This document shows positions 2,396-37,109 of a stretch of 64,000 nt of DNA, in pieces (the first letter of the stretch is position 1; each line of letters starts with the position of its first letter). The notes under the pieces are model-generated. The model had not been told where the DNA came from and ran no database searches. It saw nothing but the letters and a program-made list of their open reading frames with translations. The stretch is from positions 1 to 64,000 of IMG/VR virus record IMGVR_UViG_3300045391_000912. One strand, written 5' to 3'. Position numbers and translations under genes: made by a program. The stretch comes from a virus.

Positions 2396-5300
2396 TCAAC
2401 TGCTGTCCTGCCAGGCAAAACTCGGTGCGGAAGGCTCAGCGACGATCTCCACACCCTGGAACGTGGTAGCCATGCACTCGATCAGCGTCCACGTGGCTTG
2501 CTCCGCGTCTGCCTCCGGCACGAACACATCCAGCTCGTCGTGCACCGGCAACAGCACCGAGTTGCCCCATCGCGTCTTGCGCCACTTGACCAGCGCATCC
2601 ACCAGCAACTCCCGCGCCGTGCCCTGAATTGCGTAGTTAGGCGCCGAGTGTGGCCGCAGCGTGTCGAAGTGGATCAACCGGCCGCTGTAAGCCTGGAAGT
2701 GCGACTGCCCGTTCTTGACCGCGTTCCGGACGTTGTTCGACCAAGCGCTCAACTGCGGGGTCATGCCGTCCAGCGTGTTGATCACTGCCTGCGCCGCTTC
2801 CAGGCTGGTACCTGTCTGAGCTGCCAGAGCCTCCACACCCCCGCCGTAGAGCCTGCCGAACACCAGACGCTTAGCCACGTACCGGTGTTCCTTGGCTGGC
2901 TTGGGCCTGCCGGTCGGGTTGGACTCGGACACCTTGCTGGCCTCGGCGTTGTCACCCCACACCTGCCGGGCGATCTCCTCGTGGATGTCCCGACCGGCCG
3001 CGATGATGGCCTTCAGGTTCTCGTCCTGGCTAAGCGCCGCCGCGACCCTAAGCTCAACACCCGAGAAGTCAGCGCCGATCATGAGCTGGCCGGGATCGGC
3101 GGTGATACAGGCCCGGACACCCCCCTGGCGGCTTAGCTGCTGAAGGTTGGGTCTGACGCAGCTCATGCGGCCGGTGTTGGTTCCGAGCGTGTAGACCGTG
3201 GGTCGGGCCCTACCGTCGCCGTGTTCGCACAACACCCGATAGGGCTCCATGAACATGTTGATCACGGTGTTGTTGTGCCGGTACTCCAAGATCTTTTTGA
3301 CCAGTGGCCCAACCTCCTCGTGGAACTGAAGCGGTTCAAGCACCTCTTTAGCGGCCGAGATCTTGCCCTTCCGGTCACGAAGGTCGATTCCACGGGCTGT
3401 AAGCGCCTCTGCGACCTGTTTGGGGCTTCCGGGGTTCTCGATGCTGGGAGCCATGGAAAGTACGGCAGCGGCGGCCTCATCCCGCAAAGGGCGGTGCTTA
3501 GCCTGCATCGCCTTCACGTGCTCGTAGTCCAGCCGGACCCCGTACAAGGGCAGCTTGGCCGTCATGATCTGCACCAGGCGTTCGCGCGCCATGATCTCGT
3601 CCGGGATCCCCGGAAGCTCTTTGGCGATGGCGGCGGTGTCCAGAACGTCGCTGGAGGCGTACCGAACCATCGTTTCCGTCCCTGAGTCGGCCTGTGCCCA
3701 TCCAGAGCGCTCCACGGGGGTGGTTACCTCGGTTTCCTTCAACCAGCCGCCAGCGGCGAACATGGAGGCCCTAGCGGTGTCAGCGGGAGCCGCCGTGGCC
3801 CGTGGCCCGAGCACTTTCTCCCCGAGCTTCTTGAGACCTGGGTCGGCACCCGTGCTGGCCGGATCCGCGAGCTTGGCCTTGAGCGCGGTGTCGTGCATCC
3901 GCTCCCAGCCCGAGTCGTGGTCGATCAGGTGCGCGCTCGCCAGTGGTGCCAGGTCCGCCGTGGCCGAGTGGGCTTGCAGGTAAGCCGCCTCGCTTAGCAA
4001 CTCTCGGATCAGCTCAGCCTGGTCGGCCTTGGCCGGGTCGAACGTCACCGCGATCTGGTCGTCCCCTAGCTGGACGGTGCGGAGTTTGTAGTCCCGGTGT
4101 CCGATGGGGTAGCCGGAGGTCTCCACGTCCACGGTCAGCACACCGACGCCCGTTCGCCGCATGGCCTGCCGGACCGCCGTAGCCGCTTGCGTGAGGGTCA
4201 GCTCGATGACATTGCCGTCCCGATCGCAACCCGCCGGAAGCGCCACCTTGCGACCTTCGGCGTCGTGCAACTTGGCCAGCTTGGCTTCGCGCCTCTCCTC
4301 AAGCTTGGCCTGAGCCTTGATCGCCTTCAGCTCCGCGCGGGCATCCGTCTTGCTGATGCGCCGACGGTCTGCCCACACGGCCACTTGGTAGGCGTTGATG
4401 GGCTTTAACGGATCGTAGTCGTCCGGTAGCTCTAGGTCACCAAAAGGGGTTTTCCGTGGGTTAGTGGGTTCGGGAACTACCGGAGACGAACCCACTGGGG
4501 CCTGTTTTGGCTGCTCAGGCCCAGTTTTTTGATCAACTTCCGCTACTTCCGAGGCAACTTCCCTATTTCCTACTTCTCTACTCTCTTCTCTCTTGTGTGT
4601 TGTGTTGTTTTGTGTTGAGTAGTTTATAGTACTACTACTAACTATCTGACTATCTGAAGAAGAAGAAAAAACGGGGCCTGACCTGGTGTTTTTAGGCTCC
4701 GATTGTTCTTCACTTGAACCCACGGGAACTAGCGGGCCAACCGTCGGAGAGCTAGCGGAGTTCGGCGCCGGGGTGAACCCTGGGTTGAACAAACCACCCC
4801 CGCCGGAAATGATCAACGGGCGATAGACCTGATTTTTCTTAGGGCCAGCGTTGCGGATCGCGTCGTAACCCAACTTCCCGAGCGTTCGACCGAACATGGT
4901 TTCCGACGGGGCGGGGGACCTTTTGTACGCGGGCTGCATCTCGTGCCACGCCAGGAAAGCCCTGTGGAGCACCCGGCCGGAGGTTCCGTGCTCGTTGTGG
5001 ATGCACATCTCCGCGACCCACTCCACGATCGGATCCTGCCCCGAGACCATGTCGTCCATGGTGGTCTGGAGCGTGAACGGCGCCGAGGAGGTAAGGGCAG
5101 TGTCGGGGTTGGCCAACCAGGCGGCGCACTCGCGCATGAGCTTCGCCAGTACCCCCGGAGCCTCCTGGGTCCACACCGCCGGGGTAAGGGTCTGCCGTGC
5201 GGCGCGCACTAGGTCCCGGTCGGCTTCGCACGGGATGATCCGCATACGCGCCCGCAGCGCCGGGTCAGTGATGGGAGGCTCGTCGTTGGTGGTCATCACG

Positions 5301-34214: not shown

Positions 34215-34289
34215 TGGGAGCGGGACCCGGACTTGAACCGGGATCGTACGGCTTATGAGGCCGCCAGGTTACCGTTACAACATCCCGCT
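34215..34289 (-). tRNA. tRNA-Met/Ile2 (CAT)
   Basis: Acceptor AGCGGGA/TCCCGCT, T arm CCCGG-TTCAAGT-CCGGG, anticodon loop CTCATAA. CCA is encoded. The D arm is irregular. Confidence 0.55.
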
Positions 34290-34309
34290 ACGTCAGCGTA
34301 CTACCTAGG

Positions 34310-34380
34310 CTAGGGCGATAGGACTCGAACCTATATTCAGGGAACCAAAATCCCTTGTCCTGCCATTGAACGACGCCCCA
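34310..34380 (-). tRNA. tRNA-Gln (TTG)
   Basis: Acceptor TGGGGCG/CGCCCTA, T arm ATAGG-TTCGAGT-CCTAT, anticodon loop TTTTGGT. Confidence 0.7.
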
Positions 34381-34388
34381 ATAAGCAA

Positions 34389-34422
34389 GGGTGCAGGGAC
34401 GCCTTGACCTCGCCCTGCACCC
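34389..34422 (-). terminator. 10-bp perfect hairpin inside the tRNA array
   Basis: GGGTGCAGGG / CCCTGCACCC, followed on the minus strand by TTGCTTATT. Either a terminator or a processing hairpin. Confidence 0.4.
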
Positions 34423-34470
34423 CCAGTGTCGGTGGCTAGTAGGTCAAGACTTCACCGTTGACACTGTTTG

Positions 34471-34545
34471 CTGCCGCCCCAGGGCTCGAACCTGGAAAGC
34501 TCCTGATTCAGAGTCAGGCGGGTCTGCCAGTTCCCCCATGCGGCA
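34471..34545 (-). tRNA. tRNA-Gln (CTG)
   Basis: Acceptor TGCCGCA/GGCGGCA (one mismatch), T arm CCAGG-TTCGAGC-CCTGG, anticodon loop CTCTGAA. Confidence 0.65.
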
Positions 34546-34558
34546 TTGATCTTGAACG

Positions 34559-34630
34559 TACTCCATACCGGATTTGAACCGGTACCCTCCTGATCGAGAG
34601 TCAGGCGTTCTGCCGTTGAACTAATGGAGC
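34559..34630 (-). tRNA. tRNA-Glu (CTC)
   Basis: Acceptor GCTCCAT/ATGGAGT, T arm ACCGG-TTCAAAT-CCGGT, anticodon loop CTCTCGA. Confidence 0.7.
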
Positions 34631-34631
34631 T

Positions 34632-34703
34632 TGGAGGCGATGACCGGGCTTGATCCGGTGTGCGTCAGCTTTGCAGGCCGCGCCGACACCTTGTCGCATC
34701 GCC
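34632..34703 (-). tRNA. tRNA-Cys (GCA)
   Basis: Acceptor GGCGATG/CATCGCC, T arm ACCGG-ATCAAGC-CCGGT, anticodon loop CTGCAAA. CCA is encoded. The D loop is very short. Confidence 0.55.
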
Positions 34704-34704
34704 T

Positions 34705-34778
34705 TGGTACCCCCGGTAGGAATCGAACCCACGTCTCAGGATTAAAAGTCCCGAGCTAAACCACTCAGCTACGGAGGC
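34705..34778 (-). tRNA. tRNA-Lys (TTT)
   Basis: Acceptor GCCTCCG/CGGGGGT, T arm GTGGG-TTCGATT-CCTAC, anticodon loop CTTTTAA. CCA is encoded. Confidence 0.75.
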
Positions 34779-34779
34779 T

Positions 34780-34855
34780 TGGTGCTCACGGAGAGAGTTG
34801 AACTCACACTGGCCGGGGTTTGAATCCGGTGCCTCTGCCGTTGGGCTACGTGAGC
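34780..34855 (-). tRNA. tRNA with Leu anticodon CAA but a short (5-nt) variable region
   Basis: Acceptor GCTCACG/CGTGAGC, T arm GTGAG-TTCAACT-CTCTC, anticodon loop TTCAAAC. A73 and CCA are encoded. Confidence 0.55.
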
Positions 34856-34861
34856 AAGAAG

Positions 34862-34944
34862 TCCCGCGCCGAGGAGTCGAACCTCGTGCCCCTAAGGGTG
34901 CTGGTTTACAGCCAGCCGGATGCGTCCACACGCCCACGCTCGGG
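34862..34944 (-). tRNA. tRNA-Tyr (GTA), long variable arm
   Basis: Anticodon arm GCTGG-CTGTAAA-CCAGC, T arm CGAGG-TTCGACT-CCTCG, acceptor CCCGAGC/GCGCGGG (one mismatch). Confidence 0.65.
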
Positions 34945-34998
34945 TTTGGGTCCACGCTTTTAGTTGGGAGCAGAGCCCGGACGCAGTAACTGCTCAGA

Positions 34999-35080
34999 GG
35001 CGGGTAAAAGAATCGAACTTTCAGGTTTCACCCTGGCCGGGGATTCGACGCCCGTTTGTGGACACACCACGCTACCCGCC
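34999..35080 (-). tRNA. tRNA-Ser (CGA), long variable arm
   Basis: Perfect acceptor GGCGGGT/ACCCGCC, T arm GAAAG-TTCGATT-CTTTT, anticodon loop GTCGAAT on a 4-bp stem. Confidence 0.55.
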
Positions 35081-35088
35081 ATTTAGAA

Positions 35089-35135
35089 GCCAGGTGGTGC
35101 TGGGATTTCGGGTCCCAAGACGCTGCACTCCTGGC
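35089..35135 (-). ncRNA. tRNA minihelix-like element (acceptor-like helix plus T-arm-like hairpin only)
   Basis: GCCAGG-A-GUGC ... GCAC-CA-CCUGGC encloses the hairpin UGGGA-CCCGAAA-UCCCA. There is no D or anticodon arm. Confidence 0.35.
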
Positions 35136-35184
35136 GACGCTACGGCATACACTCCCCCGTCTAAGGGCCGTCCGTAACGCGATG

Positions 35185-35267
35185 CGGAAAGCCGAGGTCC
35201 CGACCCCCAGGGTGTTACCCCCGTACGCGCTAGCAACGCGCCCCTGTCCCCGACAGGTTGACCTTCC
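35185..35267 (-). tRNA. tRNA-Ser (GCT), long variable arm, non-canonical T loop
   Basis: Acceptor GGAAGGT/GCTTTCC, anticodon arm GCGCG-TTGCTAG-CGCGT, variable arm GGG-TAACA-CCC, T arm TGGGG-GTCGGGA-CCTCG, G73. Confidence 0.55.
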
Positions 35268-35270
35268 CTG

Positions 35271-35344
35271 TACCACCGACCGGATTCGAACCGGTGTCTT
35301 CCGACTTGAAAGGCCGGAGGCTTAGACCACTAGCCGACGATGGC
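35271..35344 (-). tRNA. tRNA-Glu (TTC)
   Basis: Acceptor GCCATCG/CGGTGGT, T arm ACCGG-TTCGAAT-CCGGT, anticodon loop CTTTCAA. Confidence 0.7.
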
Positions 35345-35345
35345 T

Positions 35346-35440
35346 TGGTGAAGAGCTTGCCCTACTCCGACGATCTTCCTGGATGATCAGTCCAGTAGTT
35401 GCTTTCGTCGCCACCGATATCCTACCCAGGCAAGCCCCAC
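35346..35440 (-). ncRNA. 95-nt tRNA-like RNA ending in ACCA, closed by a 12-bp terminal helix, not a cloverleaf (E1)
   Basis: Sits 1 nt from each neighbouring tRNA. Terminal helix GUGGGGCUUGCC/GGCAAGCUCUUC. Internal hairpin CUGGA-CUGAUCA-UCCAG. No T arm. Confidence 0.4.
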
Positions 35441-35441
35441 G

Positions 35442-35513
35442 AGCCCCTTCGAGGAATCGAACCCCGGACCACCCGCTTACAAGGCGGAGGTTCTACCACT
35501 GAACTAAAGAGGC
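35442..35513 (-). tRNA. tRNA-Thr (TGT)
   Basis: Acceptor GCCTCTT/AAGGGGC, T arm CGGGG-TTCGATT-CCTCG, anticodon loop CTTGTAA. Confidence 0.7.
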
Positions 35514-35549
35514 AAGGTAGGCAGTATTAGAAAGCTTGCCCAGAGCTAG

Positions 35550-35622
35550 AGTCCCCACTCGGATTCGAACCGAGCCTCTCAGTTTGGAAGACTGATGTGC
35601 TATCCGCTGACACTACGGAGAC
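35550..35622 (-). tRNA. tRNA-Gly (TCC)
   Basis: Acceptor GTCTCCG/TGGGGAC, T arm CTCGG-TTCGAAT-CCGAG, anticodon loop CTTCCAA. Confidence 0.7.
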
Positions 35623-35679
35623 AGACGGTCGAGGTTTTTAGATTTTTAGCAGCAGAAACTCGACCAGAAAACTACTTCG

Positions 35680-35753
35680 TGGAGTCTAGGGGAATCGAAC
35701 CCCTCTAATCTTGCTTGCAAGGCAAGCGCCTTCCCCAGATGAGCTAAGACCCC
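35680..35753 (-). tRNA. tRNA-Ala (TGC)
   Basis: Acceptor GGGGTCT/AGACTCC with the G3:U70 identity pair, T arm AGGGG-TTCGATT-CCCCT, anticodon loop CTTGCAA. Confidence 0.8.
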
Positions 35754-35754
35754 A

Positions 35755-35831
35755 TGGGGTGGATGACCGGACTTGAACCGGCTTGGAACAGGTTCACAAC
35801 CTGCCGCCTCGACCACTTCAGCCTCATCCAC
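35755..35831 (-). tRNA. tRNA-His (GTG)
   Basis: Acceptor GTGGATG/CATCCAC, C73, CCA encoded, anticodon loop TTGTGAA. The base at -1 is U, not G. Confidence 0.7.
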
Positions 35832-35833
35832 AG

Positions 35834-35906
35834 CCGGTTAGGGAGGAGTCGAACCCCCGACGCTCGGTTCCGAAGACCGACGCTCTGTCCACTGAGCTAC
35901 TAACCG
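35834..35906 (-). tRNA. tRNA-Arg (TCG)
   Basis: Perfect acceptor CGGTTAG/CTAACCG, T arm GGGGG-TTCGACT-CCTCC, anticodon loop CTTCGGA. Confidence 0.7.
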
Positions 35907-35907
35907 A

Positions 35908-35982
35908 TGGTCGGTCCGGAGGGAGTCGAACCCCCGCGCGCCAGTTTAGGAAACTGCTGCTCTTCCTCTGAGCTACGAACCG
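35908..35982 (-). tRNA. tRNA-Arg (CCT)
   Basis: Acceptor CGGTTCG/CGGACCG, T arm GGGGG-TTCGACT-CCCTC, anticodon loop TTCCTAA. CCA is encoded. Confidence 0.65.
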
Positions 35983-35992
35983 ATCAATCACG

Positions 35993-36065
35993 CGATGACG
36001 AAGGGATTCGAACCCTCATAGCCCACCCTGACAAGGTGGTTCACTAACCGTTGTGATACGTCACC
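35993..36065 (-). tRNA. tRNA-Asp (GTC)
   Basis: Acceptor GGTGACG/CGTCATC, T arm GAGGG-TTCGAAT-CCCTT, anticodon loop TTGTCAG. Confidence 0.7.
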
Positions 36066-36075
36066 AAGACTTATG

Positions 36076-36146
36076 TACCCCCGGCTGGAATCGAACCAGC
36101 GTCTCAGGATTAAGAGTCCCGAGCTAAACCACTCAGCTACGGAGGC
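36076..36146 (-). tRNA. tRNA-Lys (CTT)
   Basis: Near-duplicate of the TTT isoacceptor. T arm GCTGG-TTCGATT-CCAGC, anticodon loop CTCTTAA. Confidence 0.75.
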
Positions 36147-36147
36147 T

Positions 36148-36225
36148 TGGTCCCCGCCCCAGGATTTGAACCTGGCACCTTCACTTCATCAGAGTGCTGC
36201 TCTACCAAGAATGAGCTAGACGGGG
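36148..36225 (-). tRNA. tRNA-Ile (GAT)
   Basis: Acceptor CCCCGTC/GGCGGGG, T arm CCAGG-TTCAAAT-CCTGG, anticodon loop CTGATGA. CCA is encoded. Confidence 0.65.
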
Positions 36226-36229
36226 AAAG

Positions 36230-36303
36230 TGCTTTCGGAGGGATTCGAACCCACACTGCCTAGTTCCTAAGACTAGTGCCTCTGCCAATTGGGCTACGAA
36301 AGC
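36230..36303 (-). tRNA. tRNA with Leu anticodon TAG but a short (5-nt) variable region
   Basis: Perfect acceptor GCTTTCG/CGAAAGC, anticodon arm CTAGT-CTTAGGA-ACTAG, T arm GTGGG-TTCGAAT-CCCTC, A73. Confidence 0.55.
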
Positions 36304-36304
36304 T

Positions 36305-36404
36305 TGGTGCGACATCATCAGTCTGCTGCGGGGCCGTGCCGACAACACACGGCTTTACGCCTTCAGTCCAGGTATCCGCAGGTCTAAGAGTCCGCAGACG
36401 TCAC
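36305..36404 (-). ncRNA. 100-nt tRNA-like RNA ending in ACCA, not a cloverleaf (E2)
   Basis: 7-bp acceptor-like helix GUGACGU/AUGUCGC plus A-CCA. Sits 1 nt from both tRNA-Phe and tRNA-Leu(TAG). Internal 6-bp hairpin GCCGUG/CACGGC. Direct repeat CUGCGGA occurs twice. No T or anticodon arm found. Confidence 0.4.
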
Positions 36405-36405
36405 G

Positions 36406-36480
36406 CCGCCACGCCTGGAGTCGAACCAGGGACCTCCGGGGTTTCAATCCGGCGCTCTTACCAAACTGAGCTACGAAGCG
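36406..36480 (-). tRNA. tRNA-Phe (GAA)
   Basis: Acceptor CGCTTCG/CGTGGCG (one mismatch), T arm CCTGG-TTCGACT-CCAGG, anticodon loop TTGAAAC. Confidence 0.6.
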
Positions 36481-36485
36481 TTGAA

Positions 36486-36578
36486 AGGCGCAGACTCGGA
36501 AGGTGAGGACTTTCGAGTTGGACCCGAGCACACAGAGCAAGACTGCCACTAATGTTTCTCAAGGTTTTGTCTGCGCCT
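36486..36578 (-). ncRNA. 93-nt structured element closed by a 10-bp helix, not a cloverleaf (E3)
   Basis: AGGCGCAGAC / GUCUGCGCCU closes the element. Inner helix CUCGG/CCGAG. Sits 2 nt after tRNA-Trp and 5 nt before tRNA-Phe. No CCA. Confidence 0.35.
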
Positions 36579-36580
36579 AG

Positions 36581-36652
36581 CACGCACTCAAGGAATCGAA
36601 CCTTGTCATCGCGGAGTTGGAAGCCGCTGCCGTCCCATTGGGCTAAGTGCGT
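36581..36652 (-). tRNA. tRNA-Trp (CCA)
   Basis: Perfect acceptor ACGCACT/AGTGCGT, T arm CAAGG-TTCGATT-CCTTG, anticodon loop TTCCAAC. Confidence 0.7.
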
Positions 36653-36658
36653 AAGTTT

Positions 36659-36735
36659 TGGTGCGGCCTTTTACCGACATGCCGAGGTCGTATATCGCGT
36701 TAACGGCGGGTGCTCTTCCACTGAGCTACCGGGGT
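36659..36735 (-). pseudogene. degenerate tRNA: intact 5' half joined to an unrelated 3' part that ends in ACCA
   Basis: Reads ACCCCGG-TA-GCTC-AGTGGAA-GAGC-A-CCCGC-CGTTAAC..., but no matching T arm or 3' acceptor strand follows. Confidence 0.45.
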
Positions 36736-36756
36736 GTATGGGCGCCTTATAACACT

Positions 36757-36790
36757 CACCCGTGTGGGATTCGAACCCACGGCCTCCCGC
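36757..36790 (-). pseudogene. tRNA 3'-half fragment
   Basis: Reads GCGGG-AGGCC-GTGGG-TTCGAAT-CCCAC-ACGGGTG. It starts at the 3' strand of the anticodon stem and lies directly after tRNA-Val. Confidence 0.55.
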
Positions 36791-36794
36791 CTCG

Positions 36795-36866
36795 TACCCC
36801 CAGATGGATTCGAACCACCGGCCCGCTGTTTGTAGGACAGCCGCTCTCCCGCTGAGCTATAGGGGT
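36795..36866 (-). tRNA. tRNA-Val (TAC)
   Basis: Acceptor ACCCCTA/TGGGGGT, T arm GGTGG-TTCGAAT-CCATC, anticodon arm GCTGT-CCTACAA-ACAGC (C rather than U at position 33). Confidence 0.6.
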
Positions 36867-36911
36867 ATAAAAGTCCCGCTCTACCAGCCATTACGCCTCG
36901 AACGGGACTAG
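36867..36911 (-). pseudogene. scrambled tRNA remnant
   Basis: 7-bp stem AGTCCCG/CGGGACT. Contains a D-arm-like TGGTAGAGC and an anticodon-stem-like GGGACTTTTA fused to the start of tRNA-Val. Confidence 0.4.
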
Positions 36912-36984
36912 CTGGTCTGGCAGGGTTCGAACCTACACCTGACTCCTTAACAGGGAGCAGCTCTGCCAATTGAGCTACAGACCA
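36912..36984 (-). tRNA. tRNA-Asn (GTT)
   Basis: Perfect acceptor TGGTCTG/CAGACCA, T arm GTAGG-TTCGAAC-CCTGC, anticodon loop CTGTTAA. Confidence 0.7.
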
Positions 36985-37035
36985 AAGATCACTGTGGAGT
37001 TTTCACTGCTACACGCGGCGCGTAGGACCGCAAAG

Positions 37036-37109
37036 TCGGGATAGCACGACTCGAACGTGCGGCCTCCAGCTCCCAAAGCAGGCGCTCTAACCAACTGAGC
37101 TACATCCCG
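37036..37109 (-). tRNA. tRNA-Pro (TGG)
   Basis: Acceptor CGGGATG/TATCCCG, T arm GCACG-TTCGAGT-CGTGC, anticodon loop TTTGGGA. Confidence 0.65.

Follow-up and report, generated by a model that had tools for sequence, protein, structure and literature searches.

In the transfer RNA (tRNA) array of the phage in IMG/VR record IMGVR_UViG_3300045391_000912, a 100-nucleotide (nt) unit, E2 (36305..36404, minus strand), lies between tRNA-Phe and tRNA-Leu(UAG). All positions refer to the window, i.e. the whole 64,000-nt stretch that was analysed; the complete record, which has direct terminal repeats, measures 69,607 bp, and the window covers its first 64 kb. E2 is not a tRNA: it has no T, D or anticodon arm, and its tRNA-like part is an acceptor-like end set in exact register with the neighbouring tRNAs. 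On balance, we slightly favour the explanation that E2 is a non-decoding unit of the polycistronic array, whose tRNA-like end would let RNase P and 3' trimming excise it while maturing tRNA-Phe. We propose excision by the tRNA-processing machinery because the only feature of E2 that looks selected is this end in its junction register.

Read on the minus strand from 36404 to 36305, the sequence of E2 is GUGACGUCUGCGGACUCUUAGACCUGCGGAUACCUGGACUGAAGGCGUAAAGCCGUGUGUUGUCGGCACGGCCCCGCAGCAGACUGAUGAUGUCGCACCA. In the minimum free energy (MFE) fold, its first eight nucleotides (GUGACGUC, 36397..36404) pair with E2 positions 89-96 (GAUGUCGC, 36309..36316) to form a terminal acceptor-like helix, which is followed by a discriminator-like A and an encoded CCA (E2 positions 97-100, 36305..36308). 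A preliminary description of this DNA had reported a 7-bp helix, GUGACGU/AUGUCGC, with two G-U pairs, and A-CCA after it. Indeed, both are present, the wobbles being U2-G and G6-U (pairs 2:95 and 6:91), and a C8-G89 pair lengthens the helix, whose pairing probability is 0.94-1.0, to 8 bp.

The same description had placed E2 1 nt away from each neighbouring tRNA. This is correct for the side of tRNA-Leu(UAG) (36230..36303, alternatively 36229-36303, minus strand), where a single A (36304) precedes +1 of the tRNA at 36303, but not for the side of tRNA-Phe(GAA) (36406..36480, minus strand), where the intervening base (36405) is C74 of the tRNA and abuts E2 position 1 with a 0-nt spacer. Rfam ends tRNA-Phe at its discriminator (36406), and we read 36405 as C74, leaving E2 without a 5' spacer, because C is encoded after the discriminator in 22/22 Rfam-delimited tRNAs of the array (background C frequency 0.27). 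Both neighbours were found by ARAGORN as well as by Rfam; tRNA-Phe has no encoded CCA, and tRNA-Leu(UAG), which has a class I body, shares 90% identity with the tRNA-Leu of Gordonia phage Phendrix.

The end architecture of E2 is non-random. We defined it as a terminal helix of at least 7 bp followed by NCCA, with the gap between the tRNAs filled to within 2 nt. Shuffling the gap 200,000 times produced it in 44 cases, and 31 of 127,796 phage windows contained it, which corresponds to p ~2e-4 per gap and ~2e-3 over the ~10 gaps of the array. In 13 other IMG/VR tRNA arrays (207 tRNAs), gathered via a shared tRNA-Leu T-arm pattern, all 76 gaps measuring 40-260 nt lacked this gap-filling architecture. 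Within the array it recurs in a 74-nt unit (34631-34704) and, with one U-U mismatch, in the unit E1 (35346-35440, minus strand).

Apart from the acceptor stem and discriminator, GUGACGU(C)/(G)AUGUCGC followed by A-CCA, we found no tRNA feature in E2. The 15 nt located 5' of the 3' acceptor strand, where a tRNA has its T arm (5-bp stem, 7-nt loop of the UUCRANY type), read ...GCAGCAGACUGAU and form no T-loop, and neither an anticodon arm (5-bp stem, 7-nt loop with U33) nor a D arm could be drawn. ARAGORN detected nothing in E2 at default settings, at thresholds of 60-80%, with introns allowed or in transfer-messenger RNA (tmRNA) mode, and its low-threshold mitochondrial mode gave only meaningless calls. 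An Rfam search of 4.5 kb placed no family on E2 at E ≤ 1, a search with E2 alone returned a single 12-bit chance match (E = 5.4), and the Rfam models of tRNA and of selenocysteine tRNA (tRNA-Sec) did not match E2 at E ≤ 10. E2 also does not fit tRNA-Sec or allo-tRNAs, in which the acceptor and T stems (8/5, 8/4 or 9/3) together make a branch of 12-13 bp with a T loop and the variable arm is long: it has an 8-bp helix but no T arm, and RF01852 gave no match. Nor does it resemble the tRNA-like domain of tmRNA, which has G3:U70, a T arm and a tag reading frame, as position 3:70 is G-C and neither ARAGORN nor Rfam gave a tmRNA match. The lack of a T arm and of an anticodon arm with U33, noted in the preliminary description, was thus upheld by relaxed searches, and the missed type II tRNA against which it had cautioned was not found. 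The YrlA/Y RNA family (RF02553) had no match on E2, and the complete 69.6-kb record has no Ro60/TROVE gene (PF05731), for which reason we rejected E2 as a Y RNA partner. Similarly, E2 was rejected as an attP-like tRNA 3' fragment, since the phage has no tyrosine integrase.

Bacterial RNase P cleaves hairpin or minihelix substrates with a 3' RCCA, such as the 4.5S RNA precursor, and the RCCA strengthens the binding of hairpin substrates to the enzyme. The 8-bp helix, the A73-like A and the CCA of E2 imitate the acceptor end of a tRNA. In the proposed pathway, host RNase P would cut 5' of G36404, and the same cut would leave tRNA-Phe as ...G73-C74, ready for the CCA-adding enzyme. RNase P cleavage at tRNA-Leu would then leave E2 as ...ACCA plus A, and a 3' exonuclease would trim the extra A, so that the 3' end of E2 would read ...GUCGCACCA(A). 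The predicted product is an RNA of ~100 nt with a tRNA-like CCA end that could shield it against 3' exonucleases; a CCA-type tRNA-like end has been proposed to protect RNA from exonucleases (Chen et al. 2014, PMC4201824). Here, we infer transcription of E2, its cleavage by RNase P, its stability and its later role from the sequence. This role is most likely modest, because the interior gave no indication of selected structure and yielded neither a homologue nor an antisense target: E2 may be a processing-compatible insert that keeps tRNA-Phe maturation intact, or a small RNA carried along as a passenger, like the 'stable RNAs' of T4 and T5.

Several results weigh against this explanation. The fold of the whole element did not differ significantly from shuffled sequences (z = -1.25), and the interior without the terminal helix folded like shuffles (z = -0.03). 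Above the 8-bp helix, the stack is broken by internal loops and is not a clean 12-bp mimic of an acceptor/T-stem. Furthermore, E2 has no T-loop/D-loop elbow, which RNase P and the CCA-adding enzyme usually contact, making the efficiency of cleavage uncertain. Finally, no homologue of E2 that could lend support through covariation or conservation was found in any of the collections searched.

The homologue searches covered phages, metagenomes and bacterial genomes. When E2 alone, a 551-nt piece or the whole 3-kb array was compared with GenBank phages by megablast and blastn, only single tRNAs (≤11% of the array) matched, and no E2 homologue was recovered. No homologue was obtained from IMG/VR with exact or degenerate patterns made from three E2 segments or with a 31-nt tRNA-Leu pattern, nor from metagenomes and GTDB genomes with 21-mers, all of these being pattern scans that require exact matches. 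The ~2 Mb around homologues of the 318-amino-acid (aa) gene located downstream of the array (80 metagenome, 75 genome and 2 IMG/VR loci; blastn and nhmmer), five genomes carrying such homologues, the 13 IMG/VR arrays that share the tRNA-Leu T arm, and the whole records of the two nearest IMG/VR relatives contained no E2 homologue either, and the matches in 401 Actinomycetota genomes were at chance level and no longer than 38 nt. When the window and 24 further loci, among them the tRNA regions of T4, Rey and Phendrix, were searched with a covariance model of E2 in its MFE structure, built from this single sequence, E2 itself was the sole match. The collections searched contained no close relatives of the phage. 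Its nearest relatives have 56-81% protein identity and either no tRNA array or 4-6 unrelated tRNAs; since they do not have the array, the absence of E2 from them is not evidence against its function.

The preliminary description had assigned E2 to the same class as E1 and had proposed an alignment of E1, E2 and a third unit, E3, as a check of homology. The shared class holds for the architecture: both units fill a tRNA slot, have a terminal helix and end in ACCA plus A, and E1 directly follows C74 of tRNA-Thr as E2 follows C74 of tRNA-Phe. It does not hold for homology, as MAFFT aligned only the first and last few bases of the three units. The closing helices of E1 and E3 are 12 bp and 10 bp long, and E3 has no CCA. 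Judged from their sequences, E1, E2 and E3 share an architecture, i.e. a helix-closed unit in a tRNA slot, and not ancestry. In E1, the terminal helix shows G1-C72, a U2-U71 mismatch and a G3-U70 wobble before A73-CCA, which corresponds to the minimal identity set of alanyl-tRNA synthetase on minihelices. The hairpin loop of E1, CUGAUCA, resembles the anticodon loop of tRNA-Ile(GAU).

The best local matches of E2 to the tRNAs of its own array were positions 75-93 with tRNA-Ile 25-43 and positions 11-26 with tRNA-Lys(CUU) 27-42, both falling on anticodon arms and no better than shuffled controls (p = 0.17), and the idea that E2 is a relic of these anticodon arms was set aside as unproven. None of the 322 tRNAs in the loci examined has an acceptor stem like that of E2. 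Since the matches within the array reach only p = 0.17 and no similar acceptor stem was present among these 322, E2 does not appear to be a recently decayed tRNA.

The interior of E2 contains the other elements that had been listed in the preliminary description, all on the minus strand. The direct repeat CUGCGGA x2 (36391-36397 and 36375-36381; span 36375..36397) and the downstream CCGCAG (E2 positions 74-79, 36326..36331), which forms the 3' strand of an inner 6-bp helix, were both located. The hairpin seen as GCCGUG...CACGGC is present as GCCGUGU-GUUGUCG-GCACGGC (E2 positions 52-72, 36333..36353) with a probability of 0.90-0.99 (0.99 for GCCGUG...CACGGC), and is unexceptional, because the interior as a whole folds like shuffles. 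The string shared with E1 was confirmed as the 9-mer CUGGACUGA (36363..36371, and 35387-35395 in E1); it has 3 copies in the 64-kb window versus 0.66 expected, which is borderline. We also noticed, post hoc, three anticodon-loop-like heptads of the form GACU-NNN-RR (GACU-CUU-AG, GACU-GAA-GG and GACU-GAU-GA). The pattern counts as a lead only and was not retained as a meaningful motif: 86% of shuffles hold some 4-mer at least three times, and the extended motif is post hoc only. A C/D-box or hammerhead-like CUGAUGA was rejected as well, having no Rfam support.

The leading alternative is that E2 is a decayed or rearranged tRNA pseudogene, whose D, anticodon and T arms would have been replaced or scrambled, whose acceptor end is kept only for the processing of its neighbours and whose RNA has no function; we hold this possible but doubtful. 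It would agree with an interior that folds no better than shuffles, with the lack of homologues in a tRNA-sized slot, with the position of the two weak similarities on the anticodon arms of nearby tRNA-Ile and tRNA-Lys(CUU), and with the presence in the array of two units, 34631-34704 and 36653-36793, that are clearly degenerate or permuted relatives of tRNAs (both p < 0.003). However, the similarities are at chance level and their positions misfit the proportions of a tRNA, no remnant of a T-loop or D-loop and no Rfam tRNA signal at E ≤ 10 could be found, and a similar acceptor stem occurred in 0/322 tRNAs. We consider it unlikely that E2 is a plain spacer with a coincidental helix and ACCA, degraded once the neighbouring tRNAs are freed. 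Although the non-significant overall fold (z = -1.25), the missing conservation and the unstructured state of other gaps of the array would suit a spacer, coincidence is made improbable by the rarity of the end architecture (p ~2e-4 per gap, ~2e-3 for ~10 gaps; 0/76 gaps in other arrays) and by its recurrence in two more units of the array with an identical CCA-plus-A junction. A further alternative takes E2 as an RNase III-type processing or insulating hairpin, an imperfect rod (8+3+3+6 bp, maybe stacked on the 7-bp hairpin) that would be cut as double-stranded RNA to segment the transcript, comparable to the inter-gene RNase III sites of T7 and the RNase III step in T4 tRNA synthesis. The predicted rod of ~20-27 bp with internal loops and the long helices closing E1 and E3 (12 and 10 bp) point in this direction, as does the lack of CCA in E3, which shows that not all helix-closed units of the array mimic a tRNA end. 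Yet this leaves unexplained the ACCA, the exact 0-nt and 1-nt junctions and the G+1/C pairing, and beyond the terminal 8 bp E2 has just short helices of chance-level stability, so that we regard RNase III processing as quite improbable.

The preliminary description had also suggested, as speculation, a conformational switch, and a structured riboregulator alternating between the two CUGCGGA copies would correspond to this idea. Three mutually exclusive pairings are indeed possible among copy 1, copy 2 and CCGCAG, but CCGCAG pairs with copy 2 at a probability of ~0.90-0.95 (the MFE fold; ~94% occupancy) and with copy 1 at 0.01-0.03. Forcing the pairing with copy 1 costs +3.0 kcal/mol over the MFE fold (~3% occupancy) and a pairing between copy 1 and copy 2 costs 3.2 kcal/mol, in nearest-neighbour energies whose reach ends short of alternative folds with tertiary stabilisation. 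The repeat itself is at chance level: ~0.27 pairs of repeated 7-mers are expected per 100-mer, so that roughly one random 100-mer in four would hold such a repeat, and the window shows no enrichment of CTGCGGA (19 copies versus 14 expected). Given a repeat that chance would produce and an interior with no more structure than its shuffles (z = -0.03), we found no support for a designed switch. Furthermore, E2 has no antisense target of at least 11 nt in the window, whereas shuffled versions of E2 average 4.5, and its role as an antisense regulator of phage transcripts was rejected on the ground that there is no complementary stretch of this length. E2 is unlikely to be a structured riboregulator, and one that switches between the two repeat copies seems very improbable to us. 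We give even less credence to an unusual decoding tRNA, be it type II, allo-tRNA (8/4 or 9/3), Sec-like, intron-bearing or arm-less. An 8-bp acceptor helix is found in tRNA-Sec and allo-tRNAs, and the length of 100 nt and the encoded ACCA would be compatible with such a molecule; but ARAGORN remained empty at lowered thresholds, with introns and in tmRNA mode, the Rfam tRNA and tRNA-Sec models were silent at E ≤ 10, the 15 nt before the 3' acceptor strand are unable to form a T arm, and no 7-nt U33 loop on a 5-bp stem exists.

A more speculative use of the tRNA-like end is also conceivable, although we rate it as a very long shot. E1 and E2 might be T-arm-less decoys or sponges that present the acceptor end only, made in bulk from the tRNA operon of the phage and aimed at host factors acting on the 3' acceptor end of tRNAs. 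Candidate targets are nucleotidyltransferase toxins of the MenT/AbiEii type in Actinomycetota, other CCA-damaging defences, and the CCA-adding or repair machinery. For a decoy, the interior would not matter, and its lack of structure and fast evolution would be accounted for. Within the decoy idea, the GACU heptads, a post hoc pattern, could alternatively serve as bait for an anticodon nuclease.

The phage has a GC content of ~0.61 and carries siphovirus-type terminase, portal and major head genes together with an RNA ligase. In BLAST searches of GenBank phages, its array tRNAs resembled those of Mycobacterium, Gordonia, Streptomyces and Rhodococcus phages, and homologues of the 318-aa gene were found mostly in genomes and metagenome-assembled genomes of Actinomycetota (Arthrobacter, Cryobacterium, Gaiellaceae, Acidimicrobiales). 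Taken together, the actinophage-like tRNAs and these homologues suggest that the host is most likely a soil actinobacterium. The array lies at 34215-37109 of the minus strand, flanked by tail genes and the lysis region, and comprises 23 tRNAs according to ARAGORN, 22 of them confirmed by Rfam. The full CCA is encoded by only 6 of these 22, and every CCA-encoding unit of the array, including tRNA-Ile, Leu(CAA), Lys(UUU), Arg(CCU), His, E1 and 34631-34704, ends in a junction of CCA plus exactly 1 nt (A or U). The array looks designed such that RNase P cuts alone would set nearly all 3' ends. Both tRNA-Leu(CAA) (34780-34855) and tRNA-Leu(UAG) are 75-76 nt long and have a class I body with no long variable arm, and a 22-nt T-arm/acceptor string of tRNA-Leu(UAG) has exact copies in 13 IMG/VR contigs with large tRNA arrays.

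The array contains further tRNA-like units. In the 141-nt gap between tRNA-Val and tRNA-Trp (36653-36793, minus strand), ~300 nt upstream of E2, a T arm (GUGGGUUCGAAUCCCAC) precedes a D arm (GUAGCUCAGUGGAAGAGCAC), which makes this a permuted tRNA-like module; its Rfam match to YrlA, at 33.3 bits, stays below the gathering score of 69, and its similarity to the array tRNAs is significant (p < 0.003). The 74-nt unit at 34631-34704 (minus strand), missed by ARAGORN, is cloverleaf-like, with a GGCGAU/AUCGCC acceptor helix, a T-arm-like hairpin (CCGGAUCAAGCCCGG) and U-CCA plus A. Its best match is tRNA-His (p < 0.003) and its fold has z = -2.1, which makes a degenerate or non-canonical tRNA probable. 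The segment 34999-35080 (minus strand), part of the 325-nt gap 34945-35269, matches the tRNA-Sec model weakly (24.6 bits), and a 53-nt stretch (~35004-35056) is 75% identical to a tRNA-Ser in another IMG/VR locus (L185). This gap likely holds a type II tRNA, probably tRNA-Ser, that ARAGORN missed. A GC-rich hairpin of 10 bp (GUCCCGUUCG...AGAGCGGGAC) with UUUUAU after it, located between tRNA-Asn and tRNA-Val (36867-36910, minus strand), looks like an intrinsic terminator or attenuator within the array.

Comparable units were present in other phages. In Gordonia phage Phendrix (MN096369.1, locus L005 ~4080-4480, minus strand), 500 nt without annotation precede tRNA-Leu(CUA). They contain a T arm, a 3' acceptor strand and ACCA (GCUGGUUCGAAUCCAGCCCCCUGCACCA) and, after these, the 5' acceptor strand that matches, with a D arm (GCGGGGGUAGCCCAACGGUAGAGGCA); this makes a permuted tRNA-like module, with more tRNA-like pieces nearby. 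In Mycobacterium phage Rey (NC_041971.1, locus L088 1559-1637, minus strand), an unannotated CCA-ended tRNA-like unit of 79 nt directly follows tRNA-Thr. Acceptor helix, D-like arm and T arm are all present, but the 'anticodon' hairpin departs from the usual form in having a stem of 8 bp and a loop of 5 nt.

If E2 is indeed excised by RNase P, an 8-bp helix and ACCA would be enough to release an arbitrary RNA from a tRNA operon with defined ends. This would bear on how arrays tolerate and evolve inserts, and would provide a natural template for the expression of small RNAs from tRNA scaffolds. As an isolated orphan, E2 alone opens no new question by itself; the array-wide rule (C74 encoded, CCA plus exactly 1 nt, E units abutting C74) is probably a more useful lead on operon processing.

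Compared with a canonical tRNA (RF00005), E2 has the acceptor helix of 7-8 bp, the discriminator-like A, the CCA, and the position and spacing in the array, whereas the D, anticodon (U33) and T arms are absent. The minihelix substrates of RNase P, such as the 4.5S RNA precursor, likewise have a closed helix and a 3' RCCA, which suffice for cleavage at the 5' base; unlike E2, they represent a type of substrate and not a gene family, and cleavage of E2 is predicted. The tRNA island of T5 carries 'tRNA-like stable RNAs', which are tRNA-sized and non-decoding, lie among real tRNAs, and have acceptor-like ends and an encoded CCA. Y RNAs of the YrlA type (RF02553) are similar to E2 in being non-coding RNAs of ~100 nt that use tRNA mimicry; they differ in their permuted T-arm/D-arm module and Ro-binding stem motif, both absent from E2. 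The YrlA of M. smegmatis owes its cleavage by RNase P to an acceptor stem of 7 bp, and CCA is added to it afterwards (Chen et al. 2014, PMC4201824).

The T4 genes rnaC and rnaD, labelled as 'small, stable RNA' genes (species 1 and species 2), are 119-139-nt non-tRNA genes that are co-oriented with, and directly adjoin, tRNA genes (tRNA-Arg) of a phage cluster. E2 is likewise a non-tRNA unit embedded co-directionally in a phage tRNA cluster, with junctions of 0 nt and 1 nt. rnaD also resembles E2 in running into ...GCGCACC|A, a CCA-type end, but its MFE fold has no clean terminal helix, and rnaC, in contrast to E2, has retained a canonical T arm (CCGGGUUCGAAUCCCGG). In the T4 locus, no sequence or structure match to rnaC or rnaD was obtained with the covariance model of E2, and the hosts differ, T4 infecting E. 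coli and E2 being part of an actinophage-type phage. Phage tRNA clusters have been known since the T4/T5 era to carry unexplained non-tRNA 'stable RNAs'. E2 belongs with these small RNAs, from which it differs in having no T arm and no relatives, and it represents their extreme form, in which all else looks unconstrained and the acceptor end is the only tRNA-like part.

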